This document shows positions 6,490-47,523 of a stretch of DNA of 64,000 bases, piece after piece. The translations under genes and the position numbers were made by a program. The notes beneath the pieces were generated by a model. That model worked only from the letters and a program-made list of their open reading frames with translations. It was not told the origin of the DNA and ran no database searches. How positions within the stretch are numbered: the stretch's first letter is position 1; every line of letters begins with the position of its first letter. Source of the stretch: a candidate division WWE3 bacterium UBA1379 (GTDB taxonomy: Bacteria > Patescibacteriota > WWE3 > UBA101185 > UBA10185); NCBI GenBank assembly GCA_002305475.1, contig DBRB01000003.1, forward strand, positions 13,360 through 77,359. Direction: 5' to 3'.

Positions 6490-6495
6490 TCTTAT

Positions 6496-24086: not shown

Positions 24087-24152
24087 AGGCGCATAATATT
24101 ACAATAAATAGTTAATTTCAATTTTATACAGACTTTAATCTTTCAATATATT

Positions 24153-26087: not shown

Positions 26088-26138
26088 AATTGGAGTTTAC
26101 CACATGATTTTTTATGAATATAGAAATGCGGCATATAA

Positions 26139-26660: not shown

Positions 26661-26681
26661 ATTAGTCCTCCTTAAATTAAT

Positions 26682-27098: not shown

Positions 27099-27207
27099 AA
27101 CAACTCACCTCCTCATGGGTTAGGATGGGTTAATAATATAAAGGGATAATTAAAAGGCAGTTTATCAGTTGTTATAACTAAGTTAATGATGAAATGTTGG
27201 ATTAGCG

Positions 27208-30476: not shown

Positions 30477-33111
30477 ATTAAACAATACAAATAAAATATT
30501 CTTCTTTTTTATTATTCTTGTATTTACATTTTTGCTCCAAAACGCCACAAAACAGTTTTATGCTGTTTCTTATGAACTATGTAGACCTGACTGGGAAGAA
30601 TGCAGATGCTGTACTACCGGAGATATTGATGATTTCTTGTGTAGAAATGTTAATTGCTGTGAAGCTTACGATGGAACACCCTGTGATTGTTCCAGGCAAG
30701 TCAGTATACCTGATGGTTGTACAACCTGGGGTACTTCAGCACCAGGATGGACTATACCCACACAAAGATTTCGAACGGAATATATTACTTGTAGGAATGA
30801 TAACGATAGAATGTGTAGAGATAATAATTCGCGAACAGCACGTTATTGTAACATCAACGGGAATGTCATTACTGCTACTGCCAACTATAATTGTACGTTA
30901 AATCCTCATTTAGAAGAACTCAATAGAACAGACGGATATAGAAATATGGACGAAAGACTTTATGAGCCGGATGATACAAGAACTTTTTCCTGTCCAGCAA
31001 ATATAAACGGTTATCTTAAAGTCAGAAGATGGTGGAATAATGCTTCTGCTCCCGCAGGTATGTATGATGCCCAGTATTATACGCCAGCACCTTTTGATAG
31101 ACCTGAGCATATTGCAACAGATCAATGGTGGACAGCACATTATTCAGGATATATTTATATTCCAGCCGGCTGGCGAAGAATACAAGCATGGGGTGCTGAA
31201 GATTGGATTGCAGAATGCCGCCAATTCTGTCAGGGACGCCCTTTTGTAAATTGTGGAACTAATTATAGTGCGTGTGGCTTACCAACTGAAAGATTTACGA
31301 TATATTTGGGTTATAGTAATGTGGATTCGAATACCATAGCCCCATCCGGCCAGATCCTTCCTAACGGAAATATGAGTGGTATGACAAGTATCGAGGTAAC
31401 CGGGGGAAGGAATTATTTTCAGAAATACTTTCAGGAAGGCTGGTATCCTTTACTTATTGATTATCGTCATACTGGTACATATACAAATAGTATTCAGGAA
31501 GTTGATGATGAATCCAGAATGCGAACCAGCACGTCATCTGATGGAAGTACATGGTCTGGATGGGGAGATTTTTCGGCATATCAGTTTAATTCCTGCCAGC
31601 CCGGACCTACCCTGGGACCTGTATGCACAGGTATTACCGGTCCGGCGTCCGTAAACAGAAGCACACCAGCAACATTTACAGCGAATGCCACAGATAGTGA
31701 TACTCCTGCGACTAATCTCCGATACACTTGGTCTGCTACCTGCGGTACAATTACATCTGCAAATCCGCGAACTGGCAATGCAACAATGTCTTGGGGATCA
31801 TCAACCACACCAGGTACCTGTACTATAGGTGCAACCGTCAGCGATGGCACACGCACTGGAGTCTGTCCTTCATTAAATGTGTCGGTTGGAAACAGACCGC
31901 CTGCCACCTGTAATATTTCTGATACTTTTACAGAAATTTATGTGGGTTCATCACGTACTCTGACTATAAATGGTACCGATCCGGATGCTGATCAATTATC
32001 TTATGTCACTTCATTTAATGTTTCACCTCAATGTGGAACTTTAGCTCCGGTTTCTTATTCAACGGTTCCGTCAGGTGCAAATAGGACATTTACGTATACT
32101 GCACCTAATACCAGCAGAAACGGTTGTACTTTGACTGCAACTATTCGTGATCCTTATAACGCTACAAGGACATGTTCATTCAATTTTGATGTGAAAAACA
32201 GAGAGTTTAACTGGTTCATCGGTGTAGACGGTGATATCTTTTCTGGAGATCGTACGGATATGCGTATCGGATTAACTAGCTCAGATAGTTTTTCTACTTC
32301 GTCACGATTTATCGGAAGGGATTATGCCAGTGTCTTTGGGAGGGGTGCATTTGATGTTGTTCGATATCTTTCTAACAATGCTACTCAGAATGCGGAAGTT
32401 GATACGAACAAATCAAATTTTATTGTCAGATATTCGACTGACAATTCCAATAATTATTGGAAAGATTTTCCGGATACGTTTACAGATTCTTCAAGTATTC
32501 CATCATGTAGTGTAAGCGGAGGTATATATATACTTGATGCTGGAGCTGTTTGTAAAATTGGTGTTGGCAATAATGGTTTAGCAGCAAATGTATATCGGGT
32601 TACCGTTCCTGGGTCTGATACTACTGCAAGCAATGATGTTGCATATATTATTGACGTGGGAACATCGGGGGATCTTGTTTTTTCAACCGACTTCAAACCT
32701 GCCGGAAATGGTTATGGACGCGCGGTATTGATTACACAAAGGAATGTGATAATTAGAAAGGATGTAGGTTATGCCAATTGGAATGCGCTGGACTTTAGGT
32801 TTAATATTCCTACCCTTGCACCAGATCTGAATAAGGATATGAAACCTAATATTGCCGCATCGATAATTACTACCGGTAATATTGTAGTTGAATCATCCGG
32901 AGATCCTTCAACAGAAAAGGTATTGTATGTTGATGGGCCATTGGTTGCAAAAGGTAGAATTCAAATGAATCGTTTCCCATACAACAATGCACCGGGTATG
33001 ATTGTCCGTTATCTGCCATGGTACTTAACCAGGATGGCCAATCAGGGCAGTAGTATTATGCTGGATTATGGAATATTAGATTCGGAAATTAAATGGGTTG
33101 GAGAAAATTAA
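30469..33111 (+). CDS. Large secreted Cys-rich protein with a PA14-like region and tandem Ig/PKD-like repeats. It is a candidate adhesin, possibly pilus-associated.
   Basis: A signal peptide (MNRLNNTNKIFFFFIILVFTFLLQNA) and an N-terminal Cys-dense module (CRPDWEECRCCTTGD...CRNVNCCEAYDGTPCDC). A PA14-like stretch is GWYPLLIDYRHTG. Two ~95-aa repeats (...TFTANATDSD... / ...TLTINGTDPDADQ...) are each rich in Thr/Ser/Cys. The track ORF starts at 30448. Confidence 0.55.
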   Translation: MNRLNNTNKIFFFFIILVFTFLLQNATKQFYAVSYELCRPDWEECRCCTTGDIDDFLCRNVNCCEAYDGTPCDCSRQVSIPDGCTTWGTSAPGWTIPTQRFRTEYITCRNDNDRMCRDNNSRTARYCNINGNVITATANYNCTLNPHLEELNRTDGYRNMDERLYEPDDTRTFSCPANINGYLKVRRWWNNASAPAGMYDAQYYTPAPFDRPEHIATDQWWTAHYSGYIYIPAGWRRIQAWGAEDWIAECRQFCQGRPFVNCGTNYSACGLPTERFTIYLGYSNVDSNTIAPSGQILPNGNMSGMTSIEVTGGRNYFQKYFQEGWYPLLIDYRHTGTYTNSIQEVDDESRMRTSTSSDGSTWSGWGDFSAYQFNSCQPGPTLGPVCTGITGPASVNRSTPATFTANATDSDTPATNLRYTWSATCGTITSANPRTGNATMSWGSSTTPGTCTIGATVSDGTRTGVCPSLNVSVGNRPPATCNISDTFTEIYVGSSRTLTINGTDPDADQLSYVTSFNVSPQCGTLAPVSYSTVPSGANRTFTYTAPNTSRNGCTLTATIRDPYNATRTCSFNFDVKNREFNWFIGVDGDIFSGDRTDMRIGLTSSDSFSTSSRFIGRDYASVFGRGAFDVVRYLSNNATQNAEVDTNKSNFIVRYSTDNSNNYWKDFPDTFTDSSSIPSCSVSGGIYILDAGAVCKIGVGNNGLAANVYRVTVPGSDTTASNDVAYIIDVGTSGDLVFSTDFKPAGNGYGRAVLITQRNVIIRKDVGYANWNALDFRFNIPTLAPDLNKDMKPNIAASIITTGNIVVESSGDPSTEKVLYVDGPLVAKGRIQMNRFPYNNAPGMIVRYLPWYLTRMANQGSSIMLDYGILDSEIKWVGEN

Positions 33112-34166
33112 CTAATATGAGTAAATATATTTATAAAAATGATAATAGATTTAAGAAGGGTCAGGCTCTTTTATTGGTGGTAGTAGCCATGACTGTAGCT
33201 TTAGCATTAGGCGTAAACGTATCCGTCAGAACTATATCCAACCTGTCACGTACAACAAGAAGCGATACCGCTTCAAGAGTTCTATCTGCTGCGGAAGCAG
33301 GCGCTGAGCGTTTTCTTTCTCTTGCAGCAGCAGATTTAGAAACTGCCGCCGGCGGAGATATCACATCAGCTTGTAATAAAGTCAATGGGACATCGTCACC
33401 AGACAAAAGTAAATGTACACTTCAGTTCGTAGGTGCAGATGATGTCAATGTAGTTGTAGATGTAAGTGTAGGTAGAGGAGGGCAGGATGAATATACATTT
33501 ATTCTTGAACAGGATACCACCACGGAGGTTCGTGTTAATCAGAACCCAGGTGATGGCGGATACAGATTTGCGAAAGTGTGCTGGAAAAGTATTAACCCTT
33601 CTTATAGAACAGATTTGTACTTAGTAACTTTGGGTACTACTAATACTGATGGAACTCATAGGGTATTAGGTAAACGCGTGCTAAGGCAATCATCAACTAA
33701 TCCATACAAGCCAGGAATGAGTAGTTATTCCTTAGTATCATCTGGGGGTACCGGTCAAATAATTAGTGCAGATTACTCGTCTTCTGATAGTGCTTACTGT
33801 AAAACTTTAGTTACACTTAAAGATGTTGCTGCAGATACAATACGAGCAGTGCGGTTTAGGGCTATTGGAGGAGATGCGGAAGTAACAATAACGGATGTCG
33901 GACGTTTGCCTGCTCAGGGATATACAATTACCGCATTAGGAACTTTATCTCAACCAGGCGGTAATATCATCAGAGAAGTTGAAGTATTCAAATCATATCC
34001 ATATCCCTCAGGTATCTTTGATTTTTCGATATTTTCGGGATCTGGTGGTTGGATAAATCACACCGGACAAACTCCCCCTCCTCCGGTTACACCATTTCCT
34101 ACACCTAGAAATGCCATTCCATTACCGTCGGTACCAACAGTCACTCCTACCCATTCAACTAGTTAA
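33093..34166 (+). CDS. PilX-N/GspK-like pilus-associated protein (paralog 1).
   Basis: The N-terminus KKGQALLLVVVAMTVALALGVNVSVRTISNL...AEAGAERFLSL matches the PilX_N pattern. It is paralogous to 44291..45094, which carries AEAGAERLLIR. Confidence 0.55.
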   Translation: MGWRKLTNMSKYIYKNDNRFKKGQALLLVVVAMTVALALGVNVSVRTISNLSRTTRSDTASRVLSAAEAGAERFLSLAAADLETAAGGDITSACNKVNGTSSPDKSKCTLQFVGADDVNVVVDVSVGRGGQDEYTFILEQDTTTEVRVNQNPGDGGYRFAKVCWKSINPSYRTDLYLVTLGTTNTDGTHRVLGKRVLRQSSTNPYKPGMSSYSLVSSGGTGQIISADYSSSDSAYCKTLVTLKDVAADTIRAVRFRAIGGDAEVTITDVGRLPAQGYTITALGTLSQPGGNIIREVEVFKSYPYPSGIFDFSIFSGSGGWINHTGQTPPPPVTPFPTPRNAIPLPSVPTVTPTHSTS

Positions 34167-34957: not shown

Positions 34958-36721
34958 ATGTTTAAAGTAGATACAAATACAAGAGGAATTGAAGAGGTAC
35001 TTTATGATAAGAAACTTATTACCTCCGATCAGTTATCCGCAATAAAATTTGAGCATGTAAATACCGGAAAAAGCATTGAATCTATTATTAAAGAGAGGGC
35101 TTATGTCAGTAATGATGATTTTGTAAAAGCATTGGGAGAGGCTTATGGTTTTGATTATGCTCCCCTTTCAGAAGAACAGGTCGATTCGAATCTTTTGGAC
35201 CTCATTCCATTAAGCTCAGCTAAAAAATACAATGTAGTGCCATTTAATTTAAATGGTAATAATCTGGCTGTGGCGATGGTTGATCCGCTTGATTTGCAGA
35301 CCATTGAATTTATTGAAAGAAAAACCGGGTATAAAGTAGTCCCCTTTATTACTACAGAAAAAAATATCGAACGAATTCTTGAAGAGCAGAAAGGTAAAGC
35401 AATCGGCGAAGAAATCAGTGCTGCAATGGAAGAAATCAGTCAGACCACTTTAAAACTTGATGAAACCTCAGGTGAACTTACTGATGCCACTATCCGTGAT
35501 GCTCCTATTGCCAGAATTGTGGGAATGATTCTGGAGACAGCGGTAAAAACTGGAGCATCTGATGTGCATTTGGAGCCGGGTGAAGATGTATCCAGACTCA
35601 GATATAGAGTAGACGGTATTCTGGAAGAAAAAAGAAAACTTCCTAAGGAGATGCATGATTCCATAGTTGCCCGTATTAAAATTCTGGGTAAGATGAAGAT
35701 TGATGAAAAGCGTTTACCTTTGGACGGTCGATTTAAAGTACAGGTTGGAAATACTTCAACCGATCTTAGAATTTCAACTCTTCCTACCATATATGGGGAA
35801 AAAGTTGTGATCAGATTATTAAAAGAAGAAGGAGCGGCCTTCTCATTTAAAGATCTAGGATTAAGGGGTCTATCTTTAAAACGTCTGGAGGAAGCAATTC
35901 TAAAACCAAACGGTATGGTGCTGGTAACCGGACCTACCGGATCTGGTAAGACTGTTACACTGGCTTCCGCATTAAGTAAATTAAATACCATCAGAGTGAA
36001 TATTGTTACTCTTGAAGATCCGGTGGAAATTCGTGTTCCGGGTGTAAATCAGGTGCAAATCAATCCTCAGGCAGGTTTAACATTTGCCACAGGGCTTAGA
36101 GCTTTTCTTAGACAAGATCCTAACATCATCATGGTTGGTGAGGTCAGAGACGGTGAAACTGCTGAGCTGGCTATTCATGCGGCTTTAACAGGTCACCTGG
36201 TTTTGTCCACTTTGCATACCAACTCTGCATCAGGTGCTTTACCTCGACTTTTAGATATGGGTGCGGAAAACTTTTTGCTGGCTTCCACGGTTAATGTGGT
36301 GGTTGCCCAAAGACTTGTGCGTAAAGTATGCAGCAACTGTGCTGAAGAATACGATCCTCCGGAGGAAGTTGTACAGGATATCAAAAGAGTGGTATCAGGT
36401 ATATCCAATGCCATGCTGGCACAGAATAAAGATCCGGATATTATGAAAGCCGTGAAGAAATCCCAGGAAAACAAAATCACTTTGAAAAAAGGCACGGGTT
36501 GTGACAAGTGTGCCAATACCGGATACAAAGGACGACTTGGAATATTTGAAGTATTAAATATATCCAATGAGATTTCACATATGACGCTAGAAAATGCACC
36601 CGCAGCAAAAATAGAAGCTATTGCTGTTGAGCAGGGCATGATAACATTAATGCAGGATGGTTATCTGAGAGTGTTGGAAGGCGCAACAACACTTGAAGAA
36701 GTACTTAGAGTCGCCAAATAA
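34958..36721 (+). CDS. pilB: Type IV pilus assembly ATPase PilB (GspE family).
   Basis: An N-terminal T2SSE_N domain, Walker A VTGPTGSGKTVT, Asp/His boxes, Walker B IIMVGEVRD, and the tetracysteine motif CSNCAEEY...CDKCANTGYKGR. Confidence 0.9.
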   Translation: MFKVDTNTRGIEEVLYDKKLITSDQLSAIKFEHVNTGKSIESIIKERAYVSNDDFVKALGEAYGFDYAPLSEEQVDSNLLDLIPLSSAKKYNVVPFNLNGNNLAVAMVDPLDLQTIEFIERKTGYKVVPFITTEKNIERILEEQKGKAIGEEISAAMEEISQTTLKLDETSGELTDATIRDAPIARIVGMILETAVKTGASDVHLEPGEDVSRLRYRVDGILEEKRKLPKEMHDSIVARIKILGKMKIDEKRLPLDGRFKVQVGNTSTDLRISTLPTIYGEKVVIRLLKEEGAAFSFKDLGLRGLSLKRLEEAILKPNGMVLVTGPTGSGKTVTLASALSKLNTIRVNIVTLEDPVEIRVPGVNQVQINPQAGLTFATGLRAFLRQDPNIIMVGEVRDGETAELAIHAALTGHLVLSTLHTNSASGALPRLLDMGAENFLLASTVNVVVAQRLVRKVCSNCAEEYDPPEEVVQDIKRVVSGISNAMLAQNKDPDIMKAVKKSQENKITLKKGTGCDKCANTGYKGRLGIFEVLNISNEISHMTLENAPAAKIEAIAVEQGMITLMQDGYLRVLEGATTLEEVLRVAK

Positions 36722-36732
36722 TTACTGCCTAT

Positions 36733-37821
36733 ATGAGATTAGATGCAACACAAATATTGGAGCAAGTTGTAAGTAATAATGCATCAGATTTGCATTTATG
36801 CGTTGGAGTTTCTCCGCATATCAGGGTGAATACAGTACTCAGCCCTCTTGCTGATTATCCCCCATCGACAACGGAAGATATTGAATATTTCCTCAGTCAG
36901 GTTCTTGATGAAGATCAAAAATCCTTGTATGAAATTAATCGTGAGTTGGATTTTTCCATTGCCTTAGGTAATAAAGCACGTTTCAGAGTAAATGCCTTTT
37001 ATCAAAGAGGATACCCCTCGGTTGCCCTGCGTTCCATTCCCATGACAATACCTACTTTGGAGGACCTTAATTTACCGGAGATACTCGGAAAACTTTGTGA
37101 TCTTAAGCAGGGGTTGATATTGGTTGTCGGACCTACCGGGCATGGTAAATCCACAACCATTGCATCTATGATAGATAAAATCAACAACAGCAGGGCGGAA
37201 CATATCATAACAGTGGAAGATCCTATAGAATATGTGTATACAAATAAATCATCATTTATTGAACAAAGAGAAATGTATATTGATACTCATGATTGGGATA
37301 TTGCATTAAAATCAGTTCTTAGACAGGATCCTAACATCGTGATGATCGGAGAAATGCGGGATATTGAAACAATGACAGCCGCACTTCAGGTTTCTGAAAC
37401 CGGTCACCTGGTTTTTGCAACACTTCATACAAACTCAGCTGCCCAAACCGTAGAAAGAATTATTAACTCATTTCCGGAAGGATCAAAAGCCCAGGTACGA
37501 CTTCAGCTTGCCCAGGTATTAGAAGTGATCATTTCACAAAGACTACTCCCCTCCTCTACCAAAGGTATGGTTCCTGCGGTAGAAATAATGCTGGCAACCG
37601 ATGCAATCCGTAATCTGATTCGGGAAAACAAGACGCACATGATTGATAATACAATCCGAACCAGCATGTCGGTGGGTATGCAGCCGATTGAACGAGGTCT
37701 GGCACTTCTGGTGGAAAAAGGCTGGGTGGATGTATCTGATGCAATGAAATATGCCATTCTTCCGGATGAATTGGCAAGACTTTTAAAAAATTCAAAGTAT
37801 GTGAAACCTGAAAAACGCTAA
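36733..37821 (+). CDS. pilT: Type IV pilus retraction ATPase PilT.
   Basis: Walker A VVGPTGHGKSTT and the block IVMIGEMRDIETMTAALQVSETGHLVFATLHTNSAAQTVERII; a 362-aa protein typical of PilT. Confidence 0.9.
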   Translation: MRLDATQILEQVVSNNASDLHLCVGVSPHIRVNTVLSPLADYPPSTTEDIEYFLSQVLDEDQKSLYEINRELDFSIALGNKARFRVNAFYQRGYPSVALRSIPMTIPTLEDLNLPEILGKLCDLKQGLILVVGPTGHGKSTTIASMIDKINNSRAEHIITVEDPIEYVYTNKSSFIEQREMYIDTHDWDIALKSVLRQDPNIVMIGEMRDIETMTAALQVSETGHLVFATLHTNSAAQTVERIINSFPEGSKAQVRLQLAQVLEVIISQRLLPSSTKGMVPAVEIMLATDAIRNLIRENKTHMIDNTIRTSMSVGMQPIERGLALLVEKGWVDVSDAMKYAILPDELARLLKNSKYVKPEKR

Positions 37822-37825
37822 GCCT

Positions 37826-39028
37826 ATGCCTTTGTTTAAGTATACAGCAACAGATACCAACGGGAATAGAAAAGAAGGAACCGTAGACGCGCGTTCTGAA
37901 GAACTAGCTGTATCTCTTCTAAAATCTCAGGGCTTTTTTGTCATAAATGTAGCAGAACAGAAAAGCGGTATTTTAGGATCAATTTCGGCAGTCAGAGGAA
38001 TTTCCGAAAGTGAAATAGTGGCTTTTACCAGACAGTTTTCCACCATGATTTCAGCTGGTCTTCCGATATCAAGAGCATTAGATGTTTTGGCGGAACAGTC
38101 TCCAAATAAAAATTTCAGGATTATGATGGGAAGTATATTGCGAGATGTTGAGGGTGGTTCTCCTTTATCCGCATCAATGGGACGTTATCCTAAGTATTTC
38201 AACCCTACCTACCAGGCATTAGTCAGAGCCGGAGAATCCTCAGGTAAACTTGATGAAATTCTTAAACGATTAGCTGCTACTATGGAAGCAAATCGGGAGC
38301 TTAAAGCTAAGTTCAAAACCGCCATGATCTATCCCACTATCGTCATGATTGCGATGGTAGGTGTGTTTTTCCTTTTGATGTTTACCGTTGTTCCAAAGTT
38401 GGCGGAAATGTATGAAAGCTTAAACATTGATCTTCCTCTGCCTACAAAAATAATGATCGCAATTTCCGATTTCATGGTTCACCGTTTTTATATTATGGCT
38501 TTGGTAATTGCAGGAGTAGTGTATTTAGTCAAAAGTTTTTTGAAGACGGAAACTGGCCGTGGATATATATCACGTTTAATGTTTTCCCTACCGGTTTTCG
38601 GACGTTTAAACAGATTAAGAGATATCACTCAGTTTTCCAGAACCTTAGGTCTTTTAATAGGTTCTGCGATTCCTATAGTTGAAGCATTAAAGATTGTATC
38701 TAATGTGGTAGCCAATGATTATTACAAAGATGCTGCTTTGTCCGCAGCAACAGTTGTGGAAAAAGGAGGAGCTTTATCCGAATATTTTAAACGTAATAAA
38801 GAATTCCCTCCTCTTCTGGGACAGATGGTAGGTGTGGGAGAAGAAACCGGTCAGCTGGATGAAGTATTGGAAAAAGTTGCAAATTATTTCAACAGTGAAG
38901 TAGACCATGCAATTGAAGGTTTATCAGCTTCACTTGAACCATTTATCCTTATCTTTTTGGGGAGTATGGTAGGTCTTCTTATTGTTTCGATTATTACGCC
39001 TATTTATAAGATTACAACATCTATTTGA
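37826..39028 (+). CDS. pilC: Type IV pilus inner-membrane platform protein PilC (GspF family).
   Basis: Two GspF repeats (FTRQFSTMISAGLPISRALDVL... and FSRTLGLLIGSAIPIVEALKIV...) and three TM segments. Confidence 0.9.
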   Translation: MPLFKYTATDTNGNRKEGTVDARSEELAVSLLKSQGFFVINVAEQKSGILGSISAVRGISESEIVAFTRQFSTMISAGLPISRALDVLAEQSPNKNFRIMMGSILRDVEGGSPLSASMGRYPKYFNPTYQALVRAGESSGKLDEILKRLAATMEANRELKAKFKTAMIYPTIVMIAMVGVFFLLMFTVVPKLAEMYESLNIDLPLPTKIMIAISDFMVHRFYIMALVIAGVVYLVKSFLKTETGRGYISRLMFSLPVFGRLNRLRDITQFSRTLGLLIGSAIPIVEALKIVSNVVANDYYKDAALSAATVVEKGGALSEYFKRNKEFPPLLGQMVGVGEETGQLDEVLEKVANYFNSEVDHAIEGLSASLEPFILIFLGSMVGLLIVSIITPIYKITTSI

Positions 39029-39074
39029 TGTCATCGGTGTGCAAAAGTATATTAAAGCACCTATAATATTTAAT

Positions 39075-39599
39075 ATGAACTCGAAAAACTTCCTCAGAAG
39101 AAGAAATAAATATACAGTCGGATTCACACTTCTTGAATTAATATTAGTTATGGCAGTTATTTCTATATTATCCGGATTGTTGATTGCGGTTATCAATCCC
39201 AGGGAAATAATGGCGAAAGGCCGTGACGCTCGCAGAATGACCAATTTGGATGTTATTCATAAAGCAATATCACTGGGACTTACGGAAGAAGAAATCAATT
39301 TGGTGGCAACCGGATCGTGCTCAGACTGTTCAAGTGCTACAGGTTCTCAGGCAGTGGACGGTACAGGATGGGTAAAATTTACTATCCCGACAGGTAAAAC
39401 AGGACTATCAAGATACATTCCGGCACTACCTCTTGATCCCAAAAACTCGGAGGGTAATATTTATACCTTTGGTTCTACTGCAACATCTTATGAGTTGAAT
39501 GCCATTCTGGAGGCAGAGGATAATGCAAGTATTATGAGTACGGACGGCGGAGATGATGTAAATGTGTACGAGGTAGGCACTTCTTTGAGTATCTTATGA
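39075..39599 (+). CDS. Type IV pilin/prepilin with a class III signal. The start is refined to MNSKNF; the track ORF begins at 38982.
   Basis: MNSKNFLRRRNKYTVG|FTLLELILVMAVISILSGLLIAVI has Gly at -1, Phe at +1 and Glu at +5. There is a C-terminal Cys pair (CSDCSSA). Confidence 0.8.
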   Translation: MNSKNFLRRRNKYTVGFTLLELILVMAVISILSGLLIAVINPREIMAKGRDARRMTNLDVIHKAISLGLTEEEINLVATGSCSDCSSATGSQAVDGTGWVKFTIPTGKTGLSRYIPALPLDPKNSEGNIYTFGSTATSYELNAILEAEDNASIMSTDGGDDVNVYEVGTSLSIL

Positions 39600-40477
39600 T
39601 CTTCATTTTTTACTATATTCTTTTGTTTATTCTGGGGTTATTTGTCGGATCTTTTTTAAATGTTATAGCAGACCGTTCCATCGTTGATGAAACTTTTATT
39701 AAAGGACGTTCCAGATGCGATAACTGTAAAAAAACATTATCGGCAAAGGATCTTATCCCGGTATTCTCATATCTGTTTTTGCAAGGAAAGTGCAGATATT
39801 GCAAGATAAAGTTATCAATCTGGTATCCGCTGGCGGAAATAATGACAGGAATTTTATTTACAGGATCGGCTTATATTTCACAGGTATTTACGGATTTTTC
39901 AATTCATTCTCTTTTTCTGTTCATATTTCTGATTACGGTATCAAGTTTTTATATGATACTGTTTCTCAGTGATGCCAAATACAAACTGATTCCTTCCAAT
40001 GTAATATATACATCAATCATTGCGGTATTTATATTTTTAATAATCATCCAGGGGTATACCCTATTTTCCACATACAGAAGTTTGAAAATTGATGAGTTTG
40101 GACAATACTTAATAAAAGCAGGGTATTTTAATGCTCAACTGATTGAAAGTGCAAAGTATTTTGGAATATTGCTGGCTAGTTCTTTAGGCTTGGGTGCTTT
40201 TTTTTGGTTTCTGGTATGGATAACCAGAGGAAAAGGTATGGGAGATGGAGATATAACACTTGCTGTACTTATCGGGCTTGTGAATGGTTTTCCTAATAAT
40301 ATTTTGGCAATATTTTTAGGATTTTTATTCGGAGCAGTGTTTTCCCTTCCCCTGGTTTTATTTAAAACAAAAGGTTTAAAAGATACCATTGCATTCGGCC
40401 CGTTTTTGTTAATCGGCAGTGCTGTAGCGTTTATCTGGGGATCGAGAATTCTTGATTGGTATCTACAGTATCTTTAG
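39596..40477 (+). CDS. pilD: Prepilin peptidase / N-methyltransferase PilD (A24 family).
   Basis: An N-terminal Zn-binding motif CDNCKKTL...CRYCKIK, catalytic Asp motifs including GMGDGDITL, and multiple TM helices. Confidence 0.9.
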   Translation: MIFIFYYILLFILGLFVGSFLNVIADRSIVDETFIKGRSRCDNCKKTLSAKDLIPVFSYLFLQGKCRYCKIKLSIWYPLAEIMTGILFTGSAYISQVFTDFSIHSLFLFIFLITVSSFYMILFLSDAKYKLIPSNVIYTSIIAVFIFLIIIQGYTLFSTYRSLKIDEFGQYLIKAGYFNAQLIESAKYFGILLASSLGLGAFFWFLVWITRGKGMGDGDITLAVLIGLVNGFPNNILAIFLGFLFGAVFSLPLVLFKTKGLKDTIAFGPFLLIGSAVAFIWGSRILDWYLQYL

Positions 40478-40600
40478 TAACGTCCTTGACAGTGTATCTG
40501 AACTGAATCATACTTAATGTATAAAAGTTATTACCTGCCCATGGAAAATATAAATCAAATAGGAAAATTGAATATAAAGAAGAAAGGGGGTGTAGAGAAT

Positions 40601-41047
40601 ATGAGAAATCGAAAAGGTTTTACACTTATTGAACTTTTAATCGTTATCGTTATTATCGGTATCTTAGCAGGAGTAGTACTTGCGGTTATGAACCCTGCTG
40701 AGCAAAGAAGAAAAGCAGCAGTTAGCGTTATGCGAGCAAATTTAGACAAGATGTGTTTAGCGATGAGCGCATGTGCATCAACTGTTACTAGTGCAGCAAG
40801 TTGTGATACAGCAGCTGAAATTGGTATCACTGTTGATGGTTCAGGTAATCCTACTATGAATGGTGTCCCTGTAGGGGCAGCTTACACAATAGGCGCAAGC
40901 GGTCAGGAGCTTACTGCAACAGCAACAGGAACGAATTTGGGAACAGGAGGTACGGTTGATTGTATATATACATGTACACACGACGTTGATACTGGTGAAT
41001 CCACACCTATTACGGCAGACAATCCCGCAAACTGCTTTAACCTTTAA
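40601..41047 (+). CDS. Type IV pilin, a candidate major pilin. The start is refined to MRNRKG.
   Basis: MRNRKG|[20 protein letters not shown] with a GGG-rich RBS upstream. The C-terminus is Cys-containing ([13 protein letters not shown]...CFNL). Confidence 0.75.
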
Positions 41048-41150
41048 TCATTGGCTTGATAATACTAAAGTATCCCCGGTTAACCGGGGATATTTTCTTT
41101 TCTTGACAAATCACCTACTTAGTCTTCATACTATTCATAACATACTGTCC

Positions 41151-41813
41151 ATGAAAAATACTTATAAATCTATTTTTAAAACACATCAACAATCCGCGGT
41201 CACATTAGTTGAATTATTAATTGTTATTACTATTTTGGGGATTTTGGGGAGTGTTATAGTGGCTATTATAAACCCCAGAATTCATAAAGATAAGGTAAGT
41301 GAAGCCGTAAGACTTTCCAATATGAGAAGAGTAATTGAAGTAATTGAGACGGTCAGGACTATAGAAGGTGTGTATCCTGATGATATCGATGATATTCAGA
41401 GCTATATACAGGGAGATGTACTGGAGTCTATAGGTGATTTCACTTATAATTCAACCGGCGGTTCTGATTTTTGTTTATATAGTAATGATCAAGCTGCAAT
41501 TTTGGATGGGTATATGGCATATTCTACTCAATGGACAGATACTGAGATTATGACTTGTAGGAATAAGAGTTCTTTATGTAATAGTATTACTGAGTGCTCG
41601 CCGGTCACTATTCCTTCAGCTTCACCGACTCCTTCTCCAACTCCGTCGATAACTCCCACACCAACTCCAAGACCGAGTACAACACCAACACCAGTACCTA
41701 CACCAACGCCGGTTCCTACACCAACTCCTACACCAACACCAGTACCTACGCCAAGACCAAGTCAGACACCGATACCTATACCGACGGTTACACCTACCAG
41801 CTCAAAAAGTTAA
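41151..41813 (+). CDS. Pilin-like protein with a C-terminal Pro/Thr-rich low-complexity tail.
   Basis: The prepilin-like N-terminus [25 protein letters not shown] has Glu at +5. The last ~63 aa are a (PTP/TPTP) repeat [41 protein letters not shown]. Confidence 0.65.
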
Positions 41814-41866
41814 GTATAGGTGAATTTTGTAACGAATTACTTAATTGAAAATTTGGTTGATAAATT

Positions 41867-42397
41867 ATGTTAAAAAAACGATATCAGACAAGCAATATAA
41901 AATCATTTACTTTAATAGAATTAATGATAGTTGTTGTAATTCTTTCTATCTTAAGTGGTGCCACTATTGCTGTAATTAACAGCGCCGGATTTCAGGGAAG
42001 AGCTAGAGACTCACAACGTGCCGCAGATATAAAAAAGATACAAACCGCTTTAGAACTTTATTTTGCAGACAATCGAAAATATCCACCAAATACTAGTTTT
42101 CAACGAGTTACAGCTACTGCATTAACTAATACATTGGTAAATGGTGGCTATATTAGTTCTATACCTCAGGATCCAAAATTTCCTAACACTGGTGCTACAA
42201 ATACTGCATGTTCGAATGACCGCGATTACCTATACAGAAGTGATAGTAATGGAAGTATTTATGTATTATCAGCTAGTATGGAGTTAGAAGCTTCTGCTGC
42301 CAGCAGCAGGTGTCTTACAACTGTTGTACCAAACTGCAGCACTTTTTCATGTAACTGTACTGGATATACCAGAGCGTATTGTGTTCAAAACCCCTAA
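41867..42397 (+). CDS. Pilin/pseudopilin (GspG/PilE-like).
   Basis: KSFTLIELMIVVVILSILSGATIAVI then RAADIKKIQTALELYFADNRKYP, the classic pseudopilin helix. Confidence 0.8.
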   Translation: MLKKRYQTSNIKSFTLIELMIVVVILSILSGATIAVINSAGFQGRARDSQRAADIKKIQTALELYFADNRKYPPNTSFQRVTATALTNTLVNGGYISSIPQDPKFPNTGATNTACSNDRDYLYRSDSNGSIYVLSASMELEASAASSRCLTTVVPNCSTFSCNCTGYTRAYCVQNP

Positions 42398-42409
42398 GGA
42401 TTATTACAG

Positions 42410-42757
42410 ATGAAACATAAGTCTTTTACTCTCATCGAACTCATGATATGTGTAGGTATCATCACACTATTGCTCGGTGTGGTAATGGTATTAATTAATC
42501 CCAGAGAACTATTAGCCAAAGCACGTGATGAAAAACTTCTGTCTAAAGTAACGGAATTTGATGCTTACATACTTGAGCACAAAATAGATAATGGTGTGTA
42601 TCCCGATCTTACTCCTCCACCCGGAATAATTTATATGCATACCCCTTCTTCCTATGAAATAAATGTGGTATTGGAATTTCTTGTTGAACAGGCACAGAAT
42701 GACGGCGGAAATGATCCCGGAGTGTACGAAACAGGTAATGATTTAACCCTTATTTAA
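42410..42757 (+). CDS. Minor pilin/pseudopilin.
   Basis: MKHKSFTLIELMICVGIITLLLGVVMVLINP with an AAGGA RBS upstream. Confidence 0.75.
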   Translation: MKHKSFTLIELMICVGIITLLLGVVMVLINPRELLAKARDEKLLSKVTEFDAYILEHKIDNGVYPDLTPPPGIIYMHTPSSYEINVVLEFLVEQAQNDGGNDPGVYETGNDLTLI

Positions 42758-42772
42758 TGATATTATTTATAT

Positions 42773-43270
42773 ATGAACTTATCTGTCCAAAGTTCAAAAG
42801 CATTTACACTCATTGAACTTCTTGTTGTCGTCTCATTAATTCTTATTTTAACTGCTGCAACGATTCCTAACTACAATAATTACTTAGATAATCAGATGTT
42901 AAAACAGGCACAGGAAGCAGTGAAGAATGATCTCAGATCTGTACAAAACCGGGCATTAACCGGTACTAATGCGGACACTGTAGATTATTGGGGTATAAAA
43001 TTTTTTAGTAATACAAACACTTATCGAATTATTAGTGGTTCAGGTAATCCAAACTGTTCGACCTTTACCAATACCAGTGGTGCTCCCAGTCAGAGATTGC
43101 CGGCGAATACAACTATTGGAACAAACGGTTGCGTTTTCTTTAGTACTAATAATGGAGATCGTATAGCTGGTGTTGACAATATTAGTGTTGTTTCAGATGC
43201 CGGATCCAAAGTGGTATGTATAAACCCTGCTGGACTGATTTACTCCAGGGATTCTTCAGGTGGTTGTTAA
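42773..43270 (+). CDS. Minor pilin/pseudopilin (GspH/FimT-like).
   Basis: KAFTLIELLVVVSLILILTAATIPNYNNYLDNQMLKQAQEAVKNDL. Confidence 0.75.
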   Translation: MNLSVQSSKAFTLIELLVVVSLILILTAATIPNYNNYLDNQMLKQAQEAVKNDLRSVQNRALTGTNADTVDYWGIKFFSNTNTYRIISGSGNPNCSTFTNTSGAPSQRLPANTTIGTNGCVFFSTNNGDRIAGVDNISVVSDAGSKVVCINPAGLIYSRDSSGGC

Positions 43271-43760
43271 TATTACTGGCATGATAATAAAATCTTTTAA
43301 AAACAAAAGAATTAAACATAAAAATGGCTTTGGACTGATTGAAACTGTGGCAGCATTAGGTGTGACTATGATAGTTGTAACCTCAATGGTGTCCATGTCT
43401 TTGTATGCTCTTAGATCTACGCAACAGAGTCAGCTGATGCTTGCAGCTACTAAACTGGCTAATGAAGAGCTAGAACGTGTTAGAGCAAAGAGAGATACAA
43501 CTACCTGGTCCGCTTTTCTTACTGCAGTAAACGGCTGCACACAATTATCACCATGTTCAATGAATGAATTAAATGTTGTTGGTTCTCAAAATACTTTTAC
43601 ATATAACAATGTAGATTTTAGAAGAAGTTTTGTAGCGTCTTATCCGATTCCTAGTGATACGAATGTAGTGAGAATCGGAGTAACTGTGTCATGGAAGTTC
43701 GGGTCTTCTACTTATAACAAGTCCGTATACAATTATACAGATTTGTCTAATTGGAGATAA
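43260..43760 (+). CDS. Minor pilin (PilV/GspI-like).
   Basis: KNGFGLIETVAALGVTMIVVTSMVSM has Gly-Phe at the cleavage site and Glu at +5. Confidence 0.65.
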   Translation: MVVNITGMIIKSFKNKRIKHKNGFGLIETVAALGVTMIVVTSMVSMSLYALRSTQQSQLMLAATKLANEELERVRAKRDTTTWSAFLTAVNGCTQLSPCSMNELNVVGSQNTFTYNNVDFRRSFVASYPIPSDTNVVRIGVTVSWKFGSSTYNKSVYNYTDLSNWR

Positions 43761-43764
43761 TATT

Positions 43765-44304
43765 ATGGTAACTAACCTGATAAAGGTAAAAGGATACAAT
43801 CAGAAATATCTGAAAAAAAGTTTTACCTTGATTGAACTTATGGTTGTGATTGCAATATTAACAATCACCGCTGGGTTAACTACCAGTGTTATCGTATCCA
43901 TTACCAGAAGCTATAGTAAAACTCAGATTACAAATGAATTAGAGCAAGCTGCAGGTTTTGCATCACAGAAACTCACTAAAGAATTACGAAATGCTGTTGC
44001 TATTACCAATATTTCTTCAACTAGTATCTCTTTTAGTGATCATACAAATGATGTGATCACATATAGAGTAAATGCAAATCAATTGCAGAGGAGATCACAA
44101 TTAGCAGGTACAGCTTTTCGTGCTTTAACCGACACAAATACAACTAGTGTTTCTTGTCCTTCCGGTTGTTTTAGTGAACTAAATAGTAATCCTAAGGTTA
44201 TAAGTATTAAAATGAAGTTCACCTCTGCAGGAACTGAGGGTGGAACTGCGTTCACTGGTAGCGTAGATATTAATGATACTGTCGTAGTGCGTGGCACCTA
44301 TTAA
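43765..44304 (+). CDS. Minor pilin (PilW/GspJ-like).
   Basis: KKSFTLIELMVVIAILTITAGLTTSVIVSI then ELEQAAGFASQKLTKELRNA. Confidence 0.7.
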   Translation: MVTNLIKVKGYNQKYLKKSFTLIELMVVIAILTITAGLTTSVIVSITRSYSKTQITNELEQAAGFASQKLTKELRNAVAITNISSTSISFSDHTNDVITYRVNANQLQRRSQLAGTAFRALTDTNTTSVSCPSGCFSELNSNPKVISIKMKFTSAGTEGGTAFTGSVDINDTVVVRGTY

Positions 44305-45094
44305 TATGTTTCTCGACCCTGTAACAAAAAAACAATATAGAAGTGATCAAACTAAAAAGGCACAGACTTTAATAATAATTATTGCCGTGATGGTTATAGC
44401 CATGTCTGTTGGGGCTGCCTTATCTACCCGGTTTATTAAAACTCTGAAGGATACAGCTTATATTGATATGTCTAGCAGAGCCTTAGCTGTGGCAGAAGCA
44501 GGAGCGGAAAGACTTTTGATACGTCCTTTATCCGAACTTGAACAGTTTATCGCAAATGATAGTTGTGGTTCAAATTGTCTGATAGAAATAATCGGAACGG
44601 ATGGAGTTACAGCTACAGCTTCAGTAGTTTTAAGTTATGATGGTAATACATCGGGTCCCTACCCCCTATCTCTGGAAACTAATAAAACCAAGGAAGTGTA
44701 TATGAATTCATACCCCTCGAATACTTCATTCAATATCTGTATCGACAGTAAATCGGTGTCAAACCCGATTGCCGTATCTGTTTTGTTTGCTTATGGCAGC
44801 ACCGGTAATTATCAAATTGAAAACTATCTATTGGAGAGTTTCGGATGTCATACCATACCCGGTAAATCAAATCCTGCTTTGCTCCGGATTACCTCTATTT
44901 ATGATGATTTTACAGGTCAGTTAGTTCCGGTGGTGGGAGCCTCTATTCCATCACAGGGAGTATTAATTGAGTCAACAGGTAGACTTAACGATGTTGTAAA
45001 GATAGTCAGAGTTTTAAAAACATATTCATATGTACCAAGTGATTTTGATTATATTTTGTATTCAAAATCCGAAGATGAACCATTGTCCAACTAG
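44291..45094 (+). CDS. PilX-N/GspK-like pilus-associated protein (paralog 2).
   Basis: KAQTLIIIIAVMVIAMSVGAALSTRFIKTL...ALAVAEAGAERLLIR. It shares the AEAGAER motif and overall architecture with 33093..34166. Confidence 0.55.
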   Translation: MAPINMFLDPVTKKQYRSDQTKKAQTLIIIIAVMVIAMSVGAALSTRFIKTLKDTAYIDMSSRALAVAEAGAERLLIRPLSELEQFIANDSCGSNCLIEIIGTDGVTATASVVLSYDGNTSGPYPLSLETNKTKEVYMNSYPSNTSFNICIDSKSVSNPIAVSVLFAYGSTGNYQIENYLLESFGCHTIPGKSNPALLRITSIYDDFTGQLVPVVGASIPSQGVLIESTGRLNDVVKIVRVLKTYSYVPSDFDYILYSKSEDEPLSN

Positions 45095-45117
45095 CAAACT
45101 TCTTGTAAAATTTAAAC

Positions 45118-46149
45118 ATGCCCATCATCGGTTTAGATTTAGGAAGACATAATTTCAGAGCCGTTGAATTAGATTCTCAGAAGAACAAATTCGTTCTTCT
45201 CAGATATGGAACCTATGAGAACCCCAAACTAAATCTTGAATCAGAATCCAAAGATGACATGAATATATATTCCCAGGCTATCCGGGATTTTTTTGATGAA
45301 ACAGGGTTTAAAACGGCTAATACCGTTGTATCTCTGCCTGAGCAACAGGTGTATATGAGAATAATAAAGATACCGGCTCTCAGTGATAAGGATCTGAAAA
45401 ATTCCATTCAGTTTGAAGCAGAACAGTATATTCCCCTACCCTTAAAGGAAGTAAGTATTTCCTATCAGAAGATTGATGTGGATGCCTTTGATAAAAACAA
45501 GATAAATGTTCAGCTGGTTGCCGCCAAAAAAACCACTTTGGAAAAATATGTTCAGATACTAAGGCAAGCTAAACTCATACCTAAAGGTATAGAACCTGAA
45601 ACTTTAGCGGTAGGACGTATTCTAGGAGATACAGAAGACCATCCTTCTGCTAGCATAATTTTGAATATCGGTTTTTCACAGACTTTGATATGTATAACTT
45701 ACAGGGGATTCGTCCGGTTTACCCGTAGCATATCAATAGGTGGAGATACAATTACTCGTGCCATATCTCAGTCTTTAGGTTTTGATTATTCCCAGTCTGA
45801 AGAATACAAAAAAACTTACGGTTTGGATTCCTCCCAGGTAGAAGGAAAGATATTTGAAGTAATAAAGCCGTTGTTTGATTCGGTTATCCAGGAAGTCAAG
45901 AGGTCAAAAATGTTCTTTACAACACACAATCCAAACATTACTATTAACAGAGTAATACTATCTGGAGGTACTGCCCTGATGCCTGGCTTATTTATATACA
46001 TGGCAAATAATTTAGATTTAGAAGTTGAACTGGCTAATCCCTGGAAGAATATTGAATTCTCTGACAGACTCGCATCCAAAAAAGATTCCCTTTTACAGGA
46101 AGGACCGTTATTTGCAACCAGCGCAGGTCTTGCGCTTAAGGAGGTCTAA
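45118..46149 (+). CDS. pilM: Type IV pilus assembly protein PilM (actin-like ATPase fold).
   Basis: MPIIGLDLGRHNFRAVEL at the N-terminus and 343 aa length. It lies immediately upstream of the pilN-like and pilO-like genes. Confidence 0.8.
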   Translation: MPIIGLDLGRHNFRAVELDSQKNKFVLLRYGTYENPKLNLESESKDDMNIYSQAIRDFFDETGFKTANTVVSLPEQQVYMRIIKIPALSDKDLKNSIQFEAEQYIPLPLKEVSISYQKIDVDAFDKNKINVQLVAAKKTTLEKYVQILRQAKLIPKGIEPETLAVGRILGDTEDHPSASIILNIGFSQTLICITYRGFVRFTRSISIGGDTITRAISQSLGFDYSQSEEYKKTYGLDSSQVEGKIFEVIKPLFDSVIQEVKRSKMFFTTHNPNITINRVILSGGTALMPGLFIYMANNLDLEVELANPWKNIEFSDRLASKKDSLLQEGPLFATSAGLALKEV

Positions 46150-46160
46150 AGGAGGATTAT

Positions 46161-46715
46161 ATGTATTCACAAAGCGTTAACCTCATACCACAGGAAGAAG
46201 TACACGAACAGGTAAAAGAACAAGTAGTAAAAATGAGTACGGTATTTTCTGTTCTACTCTTTTTGATTGTAGGGGGGATTTCTTTCTATTTTTATAACAC
46301 TGTCAATTCATTAAAAAGCGATATTAAAAAAACCGACTCCGAAATTGAATCATTCAGAAAAGAAATCAGTAGCATGGCGAATGTAGAAATTAGTGCCCGA
46401 AATTTATCCACAAAATACAATATATTAAAGGATCTTATGAAATCAAGAGAAAAATACTCAATTCTTCTGGCAAATCTGAAAGAAAAAACACCTTCAACAA
46501 TCGTGGTAGCTAATATGACCGATTCTGCAAACAATAGTCTGGCAATTTCTGGAACCGGCGAAACATACACATCGATTGCCGATTTTGCAAATTCTCTTAC
46601 TGATGGCGAGACTGTTTTCAGTAATGTTTCTCTTAATTCAGTTTCCTATGAGAATAAATCCAGCCGGGTGTCATATTCCATAGTAGTTACTTATATTCCG
46701 GAGAAGTTGAGGTAA
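46161..46715 (+). CDS. pilN: Type IV pilus assembly protein PilN.
   Basis: An N-terminal VNLIPQEE motif (the INLLP-like motif), a single TM helix, then coiled-coil; 184 aa. Confidence 0.65.
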   Translation: MYSQSVNLIPQEEVHEQVKEQVVKMSTVFSVLLFLIVGGISFYFYNTVNSLKSDIKKTDSEIESFRKEISSMANVEISARNLSTKYNILKDLMKSREKYSILLANLKEKTPSTIVVANMTDSANNSLAISGTGETYTSIADFANSLTDGETVFSNVSLNSVSYENKSSRVSYSIVVTYIPEKLR

Positions 46716-46719
46716 TACT

Positions 46720-47523
46720 ATGCAGATAAACAGTTCTACATTTAAAGAATTTCTCTTAAATTTTATCATTCCGCTTATTGCTATAGCTGCTACCGGAGCT
46801 TTGGGTTTTTTTATATTGTATCCTTCGTATACTGCATTGGAACCTACACGCGCGGAATTAAGTACCAAAAAAGCACTTCATAATCAACTAAATTCCAAGC
46901 TTACCACACTGCATGATCTGGTGGAGTTCAAAGCAGTAGTCGATGAAAATGCATCCTTAGTACATCGTGTTATCCCTGATGAAGCTGCAGTCCCCTTCCT
47001 CTTAACCCAGATAGACTTGATTGCTAAAGAAGCAGGGCTGGAAGTGACGAAAATGAGCTATACATATTCCACGCCTACTAAAACAACTGCTCCTCAACCC
47101 ACATCTGCTGAGATTAGTGAGTCCGACGAGACTGCAGAAAAAAGTCCAAAGTATCTGATTGTTGATGTATTACTTGGTGCAACAGGAAATCTGGATCAGC
47201 TTCAGGAATTTTTCAATAAAATTGAGACATCCGCTCGATATGTTGATATTGATACTTTCCGGTTTGAAGCTGAAAATGAACAGGATGGAGAAGCTGTCAG
47301 CGGTAGCTCCCGTCTGGCTATCACATTTGGTCTGCGTGCTCCGCACATCAGAGTTCAGTCAAATGCGGTGACCGATGATCCCATTGATCTGAACATTTCT
47401 GATGATGAATTTCTGGGGGTAATTAATACTATTAAAGGGATGAAGTACTATGATATTACTGAGGAAAGTATAAATCAGGCACTGCTGGAAGAAACCAGGG
47501 AAACAACTGAATCAACCAGTTAA
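46720..47523 (+). CDS. pilO: Type IV pilus assembly protein PilO-like.
   Basis: A single N-terminal TM helix (IIPLIAIAATGALGFFILY), coiled-coil, then a ferredoxin-like C-terminal domain. Its position after pilM and pilN supports the call. Confidence 0.55.
   Translation: MQINSSTFKEFLLNFIIPLIAIAATGALGFFILYPSYTALEPTRAELSTKKALHNQLNSKLTTLHDLVEFKAVVDENASLVHRVIPDEAAVPFLLTQIDLIAKEAGLEVTKMSYTYSTPTKTTAPQPTSAEISESDETAEKSPKYLIVDVLLGATGNLDQLQEFFNKIETSARYVDIDTFRFEAENEQDGEAVSGSSRLAITFGLRAPHIRVQSNAVTDDPIDLNISDDEFLGVINTIKGMKYYDITEESINQALLEETRETTESTS

Follow-up and report, generated by a model that had tools for sequence, protein, structure and literature searches.

Positions 34958-47523 of a 64-kb window (the whole 64,000-nt stretch analyzed here, from contig DBRB01000003.1 of the candidate division WWE3 bacterium UBA1379) raise the question of what kind of machine is built from a run of pilus-like genes that is rich in pilins and has no secretin: a retractile type IV pilus (T4P), a competence pseudopilus, or a secretion apparatus. 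An earlier reading of the DNA, made before any database search (the sequence-only reading), had favored a T4P with PilB, PilT, PilC, a prepilin, PilD, a PilX-like protein and PilM/N/O as its components, and all of these are recovered on the + strand at the positions given below. A listing of open reading frames (ORFs) together with Pfam and NCBIfam profile searches confirms a compact same-strand (+) cluster, and we hold with considerable confidence that its identity and general mechanism are those of a retractile, secretin-less, monoderm-style machine resembling a type IVa pilus (T4aP). Judged by its gene content, 34958-47523 is a complete retractile T4P gene cluster of a WWE3 bacterium (Candidate Phyla Radiation, CPR, or Patescibacteria), and the system probably reaches upstream to 29805-34166.

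Assembly machinery, organism and conservation

The core proteins of a T4aP, namely PilB, PilT, PilC, PilD, class III pilins and PilM-PilN-PilO, are all encoded in the cluster, and the Pfam and NCBIfam profiles between them bear out the assignments of PilB, PilT, PilC, PilD and PilM/N/O. The extension ATPase PilB (34958-36721, +) matches T2SSE at 4.5e-129 and MshEN at 1.5e-18, scores 579 bits (1e-173) against TIGR02538, and contains a Walker A motif, GPTGSGKT, as well as a CxxC...CxxC arrangement (Cys4 Zn site). We considered the MshEN domain of PilB as a cyclic di-GMP sensor and rejected it, the NCBIfam c-di-GMP motif scoring 21.9 bits against a cutoff of 38; the sequence also departs from the published motif at what we take to be its key Arg/Gly/Gln residues. 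The retraction ATPase PilT (36733-37821, +) scores 432.6 bits against TIGR01420, above the cutoff of 319.1, and carries the AIRNLIRE motif; the platform protein PilC (37826-39028, +) has two T2SSF domains (5.5e-64) and matches the GspF/PilC models of NCBIfam at 1e-103 to 1e-109. PilD (39596-40477, +), the prepilin peptidase and N-methyltransferase, has no NCBIfam match; it is recognized by its A24_N_bact domain (2.1e-28, 98.7 bits, cutoff 23) and by its CxxC...CxxC and GxGD motifs. At the distal end lie the actin-like cytoplasmic alignment protein PilM (45118-46149, +; PilM_2 9.2e-52, 176.5 bits; TIGR01175 200 bits, cutoff 133), then PilN (46161-46715, +; Pfam PilN 5.7e-6, 26.7 bits, cutoff 22.8), whose N-terminus reads SVNLIP, which we take to resemble the PilM-binding INLLP motif, and PilO (46720-47523, +; Pfam PilO 1.5e-7, 32.1 bits, cutoff 22), which has an acidic linker, a C-terminal extension and a weak GspM-like match at residues 131-208.

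The PilP lipoprotein and PilQ secretin that characterize a diderm T4aP are absent from the window: Pfam scans of its ~60 ORFs of at least 110 aa, which cover 35 kb 5' and 16.5 kb 3' of the locus, gave no match to Secretin, PilP, ComEC or DprA. The claim that the cluster has neither PilQ nor PilP holds within that scope, and no secretin lies immediately beside it or anywhere else in the 64 kb. PilP and PilQ would not be needed, because CPR bacteria have no outer membrane (PMC6744442); the same study finds PilQ missing from CPR genomes.

The guess of a CPR-type organism likewise proved sound, with PilB 79-81% and GyrB 75-81% identical to proteins of candidate division WWE3 metagenome-assembled genomes (MAGs). 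The locus is framed by housekeeping genes: gyrB and a holB-like gene on its 5' side, and trmD, rnc, nusB, recG, tyrS, a class A penicillin-binding protein and pheST on its 3' side. A search with PilB, limited to one genome per species, collected 80 related species-level loci; the best matches (79-81%) belong to MAGs that are either assigned to WWE3 or clearly WWE3-like in their synteny, and the next (~50%) to Woykebacteria, CPR3 and Microgenomates. The order gyrB(-) holB(-) pilB pilT pilC pilin pilD [pilins] PilX-like pilM (pilN pilO trmD) is found in nearly every sufficiently long locus of the 80, and by this sequence comparison the machine shows vertical conservation in WWE3 and in lineages of the Microgenomates type. 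Loci that include the whole block carry ~4-9 pilins with Glu5 each, so the eight described below are typical for the lineage. The stability of the gyrB-holB-pilBTC synteny could make it a landmark by which pilus loci are located in CPR MAGs that are fragmented. Many public MAG records (L021, L025, L026, L028, L031, L034 and others) are titled 'uncultured Gammaproteobacteria', 'Pseudomonadales' or 'Candidatus Saccharibacteria' and show Microgenomates/WWE3-type gyrB-holB-pilBTC synteny with ~50-80% PilB identity; the record-level taxonomy of these MAGs looks wrong.

Pilins, their signal peptides and the major subunit

A six-frame motif scan of the window returned exactly eight [G/A/S]↓[F/V]-x-L-x-E signals (the arrow marks the predicted cleavage site), each followed by a hydrophobic helix, along with two PilX_N-like N-termini, and all ten lie in or beside the pil locus. 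The sequence-only reading was right that the locus is a multi-pilin one with a retraction ATPase, as the profile searches bear out, and its pilin calls keep the x↓F...E5 signal on careful scanning; its count of seven pilin genes has to be raised to eight, the number of ORFs in which a class III signal is combined with Glu5. One precedes pilD and seven follow it (mechanical ORFs spanning 40517-44304), their leaders are 5-23 aa long, and N_methyl matches reach gathering level in 6 of the 8. The mechanical ORF list starts several of them too early; the likely ATGs are 39075 for pln1, 40601 for pln2 and 41151 for pln3.

The prepilin encoded between pilC and pilD, pln1 (39075-39599, +; ...KYTVG↓FTLLE), has a weak N_methyl match (18.3 bits) and exceeds the TIGR02532 cutoff (22 bits against 16.3); its stop overlaps the pilD start, and its positional counterparts in WWE3 relatives share 50-62% identity with it. 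First after pilD comes pln2 (40601-41047, +), with a 6-aa leader (MRNRKG↓FTLIE), six Cys and the top N_methyl score of the set (40.9 bits), whose phmmer matches in the PDB are major pilins of type IVa. It is followed by pln3 (41151-41813, +; ...QQSA↓VTLVE; N_methyl 24.5 bits), with a Pro/Thr-rich C-terminal tail coded by a 12-nt periodic repeat in 11 overlapping copies (41628-41795). A Pro/Thr-rich C-terminal tail is also present on the upstream PilX-like protein (34080-34163); such tails may be O-glycosylated or act as a spacer region, and the pln3 repeat could change length by slippage. The GspG/PilA-like prepilin pln4 (41867-42397, +; ...NIKS↓FTLIE) matches N_methyl at 29.9 bits, T2SSG at 27.8 bits and GspG at 2.9e-12, and in the PDB it matches GspG and geopilin, and the short prepilin pln5 (42410-42757, +; MKHKS↓FTLIE; N_methyl 26.6 bits) is a shortened paralog of pln1 (BLASTP 7.6e-13). 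On these similarities pln1-pln5 look like major or GspG-type pilins.

The last three are candidate minor pilins, each resembling a different family at a level below that family's cutoff. pln6 (42773-43270, +; ...SSKA↓FTLIE; N_methyl 25.2 bits) is GspH/FimU/PpdA/ComGD-like, matching PRK10506 PpdA at 2.5e-8 over residues 4-154 and ComGD at 6e-8; pln7 (43260-43760, +; ...HKNG↓FGLIE) is PilV/GspI-like (TIGR02523 PilV 1.9e-6), with weak Tt1218-like and N_methyl matches; and pln8 (43765-44304, +; ...LKKS↓FTLIE; N_methyl 26.8 bits) is ComGF/GspJ/PilW-like, matching ComGF at 1.4e-7 over residues 18-115. Sequence searches of the PDB with pln6, pln7 and pln8 gave no match specific to minor pilins.

The residue at -1 of these signals is Gly in three pilins, Ala in two (41196 in pln3, 42800 in pln6) and Ser in three. 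The Ser codons at 41903 (pln4), 42422 (pln5) and 43819 (pln8) are TCA, TCT and AGT; they differ, and the changes are therefore independent. Among 237 signals of the related loci the -1 residue is Gly in 224, Ala in 11 and Ser in 2, and orthologs of pln8 in relatives have Gly. Acceptance of Ser at -1 is a specificity known for archaeal peptidases. In Streptococcus sanguinis a G-1A pilin is processed and a G-1S pilin is not, and in Pseudomonas aeruginosa residues bulkier than Ala at -1 block processing (PMC6497953). Either PilD has a relaxed specificity here, or pln4, pln5 and pln8 stay uncleaved; Ser at -1 is unusually frequent here, which matters for the specificity of prepilin peptidases and for prediction tools that accept only pilins with Gly.

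Which of these pilins would form the bulk of the filament can be approached through local expression signals. A promoter-like site, TTGACA-17-CATACT (40486-40514, +; 10/12 match to a sigma-70-like consensus), precedes pln2, an SD-like (Shine-Dalgarno-like) GGGGGTG lies upstream of its internal ATG at 40601, and an intrinsic terminator-like hairpin follows it (41067-41096, +; 13-bp stem, -18.3 kcal/mol, T-run), so that pln2 is the sole pil gene with a promoter-like site, an SD-like sequence and a strong terminator. A second promoter-like site, TTGACA-18-CATACT (41103-41132, +; consensus match only), lies 5' of pln3. Both sites are suggestive only, because the window holds 72 such sites against 66 +/- 8 in shuffled sequence, a count not above expectation. 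In relatives, terminator-like hairpins follow the pilin between pilC and pilD in 20 of 57 cases; at each of the first four pilins after pilD they reach at most ~5% (0-2 of 21-43), with single matches at sparsely sampled later positions. One relative (L012) has terminators after both the pilin before pilD and the first pilin after it. In the window the pilC-pilD slot is occupied by pln1, which overlaps pilD and has no terminator. We favor pln2 as the best candidate for the major pilin on its local expression signals, with pln1 as the alternative by position; the choice is uncertain because the terminators of relatives mark the pilC-pilD pilin.

PilX-like proteins, the upstream cassette and other genes of the window

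Directly after pln8 lies a PilX-like (GspK-like) gene (44291-45094, +; public annotation start at ATG 44306) whose product begins ...KKA↓QTLIII and lacks Glu5. It has no Pfam match itself. Its family comprises at least 154 proteins and is marked by a near-invariant N-terminal G-Q-x-L without Glu5 and an AAEAG motif; certain members carry PF14341 (PilX_N) or the name PilX from the Joint Genome Institute (JGI). An AlphaFold2 model built from 112 sequences (predicted local distance difference test, pLDDT, 89) is lollipop-shaped, with a 55-residue N-terminal helix and a 12-strand beta-sandwich. Foldseek comparison of this model with the PDB returned only generic jelly-roll and cupin folds at low TM-score, with no GspK or PilX, and a profile search against PDB sequences gave no match. 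The order pln6-pln7-pln8-PilX-like recurs in L012, L013, L016 and L023 and partly in L019; gene order and weak similarity together suggest that this block is a priming or tip set resembling GspH-I-J-K. In one JGI protein (P0004, 468 aa) a PilX-like sequence is fused to a pln2-like pilin (...FTLVELMIVIV...), which is either a read-through of gene calling or a genuine fusion; either way the PilX-like and pln2-like sequences adjoin in that genome.

A second PilX-like gene lies upstream, in a cassette of three + strand ORFs between gyrB and holB (29805-34166), none of which has a Pfam match at E <= 0.001. The first ORF (29805-30476, +) encodes a 223-aa protein with one N-terminal transmembrane helix and no Pfam or NCBIfam match, and its membership in the cassette is uncertain; transmembrane proteins of ~200 aa stand at the equivalent place in relatives (L004 15575-16183 and 19965-20570), and no sequence similarity to them was detected. 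The second (30469-33111, +) encodes a large, presumably secreted protein of 880-887 aa with an N-terminal signal or transmembrane helix, which we regard as a candidate pilus-tip adhesin. The third (33093-34166, +) encodes the second PilX-like (GspK-like) protein, 357 aa long, again without Glu5 (N-terminal motif KKG↓QALLLVVVAM...AAEAGAE) and with the Pro/Thr-rich tail; it is similar over its full length to the protein of 44291-45094 (BLASTP 2e-15), and its gene overlaps that of the large protein by 19 nt (33093-33111).

The large protein is laid out as a Cys-rich N-terminal region (~1-385), two immunoglobulin-like (Ig-like) domains (~385-580) and a C-terminal domain of ~300 aa. Pfam gives it only weak Big_9 and cadherin-like matches, and a PA14-like assignment of its N-terminal part was dropped, having no Pfam support even at E<=10. 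With the 887-aa query, phmmer against 1.84e9 representative proteins found only Ig repeats and one relative of the C-terminal domain (P0177); no relative of the Cys-rich ~380-residue region was detected in that set, and a word-indexed homolog search returned the protein itself only. AlphaFold2 on the shallow alignment gave a pLDDT of 48, with confidence confined to the Ig-like domains (~380-580).

Comparison of the related loci ties the C-terminal domain to pilus genes. Its homologs sit in the pil operons of L002, L004 (in two tandem copies, the second interrupted by the locus end), L007, L011, L014 and L082, either in large proteins or in proteins of 308-334 aa made of this domain alone. They are directly 3' of pilD in L002, L004, L007, L011 and L014, and upstream of five pilin genes in L082, an independent metagenome contig. 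A PilX-like gene directly follows in 6 of 7 cases, the neighbor in L082 being matched by the PilX-like profile with an hhalign probability of 99.9, and the two genes overlap by 19 nt in each of L004, L007 and the window. The closest complete relative (L004 15575-21744) holds two tandem copies of the ~200-aa transmembrane protein and the large Cys-rich protein; over their N-terminal 390 aa its two large proteins are 54% identical, which suggests duplication and diversification of a putative adhesin.

For the upstream gene pair the most likely role is that of an alternative tip module, with the large protein as an adhesin that would be anchored by the PilX-like one. We propose that the cassette is a functional analog of PilY1 plus PilX and not a homolog, the likeness being positional and architectural only, and that in this genome it has left its usual position 3' of pilD and come to lie beyond holB. 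It is possible, though we lean against it, that WWE3 bacteria share an undescribed, swappable tip cassette in which a PilX/GspK-like pilin is translationally coupled to a large protein whose C-terminal domain docks on the tip and whose hypervariable N-terminal part sets the binding target, a non-homologous analog of PilY1 and candidate determinant of host specificity; the PilD of this organism may in addition accept Ser at -1. A large variable protein with its PilX-like neighbor, pil-linked across WWE3 genomes, could be the adhesin by which these uncultured bacteria select a partner organism.

Elsewhere in the window, an 886-aa protein (6400-9060, +) with TrwB/VirD4-type coupling-protein and HerA/DUF87 domains is probably part of a monoderm-type type IV secretion or conjugation system as described for Patescibacteria (PMC12102498). 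A stretch of ~1.3 kb with low GC (0.33; 12780-14063) has no ORF of at least 110 aa and no Rfam match, and just 3' of it is a tyrosine recombinase gene (14063-15109, +; Phage_integrase and a SAM-like N domain) that could be a housekeeping XerC/D-type gene or mark the border of a mobile element. A two-component cluster ~7 kb upstream of the pilus genes (23418-27609, -) comprises an OmpR-type response regulator, a GAF-PAS histidine kinase, a YflT-like stress protein and a stand-alone receiver; a second stand-alone receiver lies at 4014-4448. A membrane H+-pyrophosphatase (20588-22696, -; H_PPase 1.8e-252) falls in the 2-kb bin that has the highest GC of the window (0.44 against ~0.38). The sole Rfam match in the window is one tRNA, with no RNA element in the pil locus, and a search for repeats turned up nothing beyond the Pro/Thr-tail repeat and the paralogy of PilB and PilT.

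Proposed mechanism, alternatives and known systems

In the mechanism we propose, ten pilin-like proteins would enter the membrane, eight with Glu5 and two PilX/GspK-like ones without it; PilD would cleave behind Gly, Ala or Ser, releasing the short basic leader, and methylate Phe1. The pln6-pln7-pln8-PilX-like block, as a GspH-I-J-K or FimU-PilV-W-X-like set, would prime assembly and end at the tip, PilB would drive PilC to polymerize the major pilin (pln2, or alternatively pln1), and PilT would depolymerize the filament, with PilM, PilN and PilO forming a cytoplasmic and membrane alignment scaffold. Work on other CPR bacteria points to likely roles in host or surface attachment and twitching, and possibly in DNA uptake (PMC12206443, PMC6744442, PMC3812714); experiments in Saccharibacteria show that T4P serve there in twitching and in binding to the host (PMC12206443).

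Several observations weigh against parts of this picture. PilB stays below its NCBIfam equivalog cutoff (675.65), and the Peptidase_A24 match of PilD, at 25.4 bits, falls marginally below the Pfam cutoff of 26.5. At -1 three pilins have Ser, with which a pilin goes unprocessed in S. sanguinis (PMC6497953). In relatives a terminator follows the pilin at the position of pln2, first after pilD, in only 2 of 43 cases. The assignment of the H-I-J-K-like block consists of weak sub-threshold matches and conserved gene order, with no PDB match specific for pln7 or pln8 and no Foldseek match of the PilX-like head to GspK or PilX. The N- and C-terminal domains of the large upstream protein are modeled at pLDDT <50, and Pfam and NCBIfam find no PilY1/PilC beta-propeller domain in it, even at E<=10. 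Taken with the profile matches and synteny described above, the interpretation of the locus as a secretin-less T4P is nonetheless supported by its sequence.

A refinement of the retractile-pilus reading, rather than a replacement for it, would be that the one machine builds at least two filament types, each with a major pilin of its own (of the pln1 or the pln2 type, and perhaps pln3 and pln4 as well) and with alternative tip modules, either the in-operon PilX-like protein alone or the upstream PilX-like protein with the 887-aa protein. The five major-pilin-like genes (pln1-pln5), the two PilX-like paralogs, the promoter-like and terminator signals that pln2 has to itself and the L012 terminators after both the pre-pilD and the first post-pilD pilins all fit this idea, and TM7x makes two T4P types, the TM7x paper also citing Thermus for two pili in one bacterium (PMC12206443). 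The window, however, holds a single PilB/PilC/PilMNO set, and the additional pilins could equally be low-abundance minor subunits; we consider two filament types rather unlikely.

That the locus is chiefly a Com-like competence pseudopilus for DNA uptake is improbable in our estimation, even though several pilins have weak matches to ComGC, ComGD, ComGE and ComGF, and CPR bacteria are naturally competent, with ComEC and DprA encoded in WWE3 genomes (PMC3812714, PMC10187176, PMC6744442). Com systems lack PilT and PilM/N/O, all of which are present here with good scores, and both central machinery proteins score lower against the Com models: PilB scores 579 bits as a type IV-A PilB against 249 as ComGA (248.7, cutoff 300), and PilC 345-366 bits as PilC/GspF against 140 as ComGB (140.5, cutoff 240). 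The number of pilins and their adhesin-like partners suggest surface binding. A comEC/dprA competence set, which the sequence-only reading had named as context to look for, is not found in the 64-kb window, nor is comEA.

A type II secretion-like apparatus whose short pseudopilus pushes proteins through the cell wall can be dismissed as highly improbable: PilC has GspF as its best NCBIfam match (366 bits), PilB scores 538 bits as GspE, several pilins have GspG/H/I/J-like matches and the PilX-like protein without Glu5 recalls GspK, but every Gsp equivalog score is under its cutoff, GspC, GspD and GspL are not found in the 64-kb window, the locus has PilM/N/O along with a genuine PilT, and CPR bacteria have no outer membrane to cross (PMC6744442).

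Set against diderm T4aP, the retractile pilus proposed here has no PilP, PilQ, TsaP or FimV, and its cassette lies outside the operon. The priming systems suited to comparison are FimU-PilV-PilW-PilX with PilY1, as in P. aeruginosa and Myxococcus xanthus, and GspH-I-J-K of type II secretion. With these the locus shares four consecutive candidate minor pilin genes, of which the last lacks Glu5, and, as with PilY1, a large, putative Sec-secreted partner with a conserved C-terminal and a variable N-terminal part coded beside a PilX-type gene; it has no significant sequence or structural similarity to the diderm T4aP or type II secretion proteins, and no PilY1 beta-propeller.

Monoderm T4P such as those of S. 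sanguinis and Clostridia are likewise secretin-less, with PilB/C/D/M/N/O, PilT, many pilins and adhesive modules tied to pilin-like proteins (PMC6497953). In S. sanguinis the adhesin domains are fused to the pilins themselves, a vWA domain to PilB and a lectin domain to PilC, and Gly is required at -1, with Ser left unprocessed (PMC6497953); the present locus has Ser in three of its pilins and another gene order.

The first T4P locus (T4P-1) of Nanosynbacter lyticus TM7x is also a single locus of pilB/T/C/D/MNO and pilins without a secretin, and its PilX-type minor pilins, which have no canonical PilD signal and a beta-jelly-roll head, have been proposed as PilY1-like primers or adhesins (PMC12206443). 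Our model of the PilX-like protein, a helix with a beta-sandwich, resembles TM7x PilX1 as described there (PMC12206443). TM7x is a member of the Saccharibacteria with five pilins in that locus, and the WWE3 locus has eight plus two PilX-like proteins; in TM7x a bulky domain is fused to PilX, whereas here it is a separate gene translationally coupled to the PilX-like gene. TM7x has a second set of machinery, and none is seen in the present window.

Among the closest known systems are also those reported at the level of protein families for CPR and WWE3 bacteria. Many CPR genomes have PilB, PilT, PilC, PilM, PilN, PilO, PilD and pilins co-localized and lack PilQ (Méheust 2019, PMC6744442), and the WWE3 RAAC2 genome has a T4P that includes pilT and several pilins, together with ComEC and DprA (Kantor 2013, PMC3812714). 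Those studies do not dissect the present locus, and we found in them no description of the H-I-J-K-like block, the PilX-like family, the large-protein cassette or Ser and Ala at -1. With its co-localized pilB, T, C, D, M, N, O and pilins and no pilQ, the locus adds one more well-resolved secretin-less CPR T4P and leaves the existing picture unchanged: it is an ordinary example of an already published system that is near-universal in its lineage.

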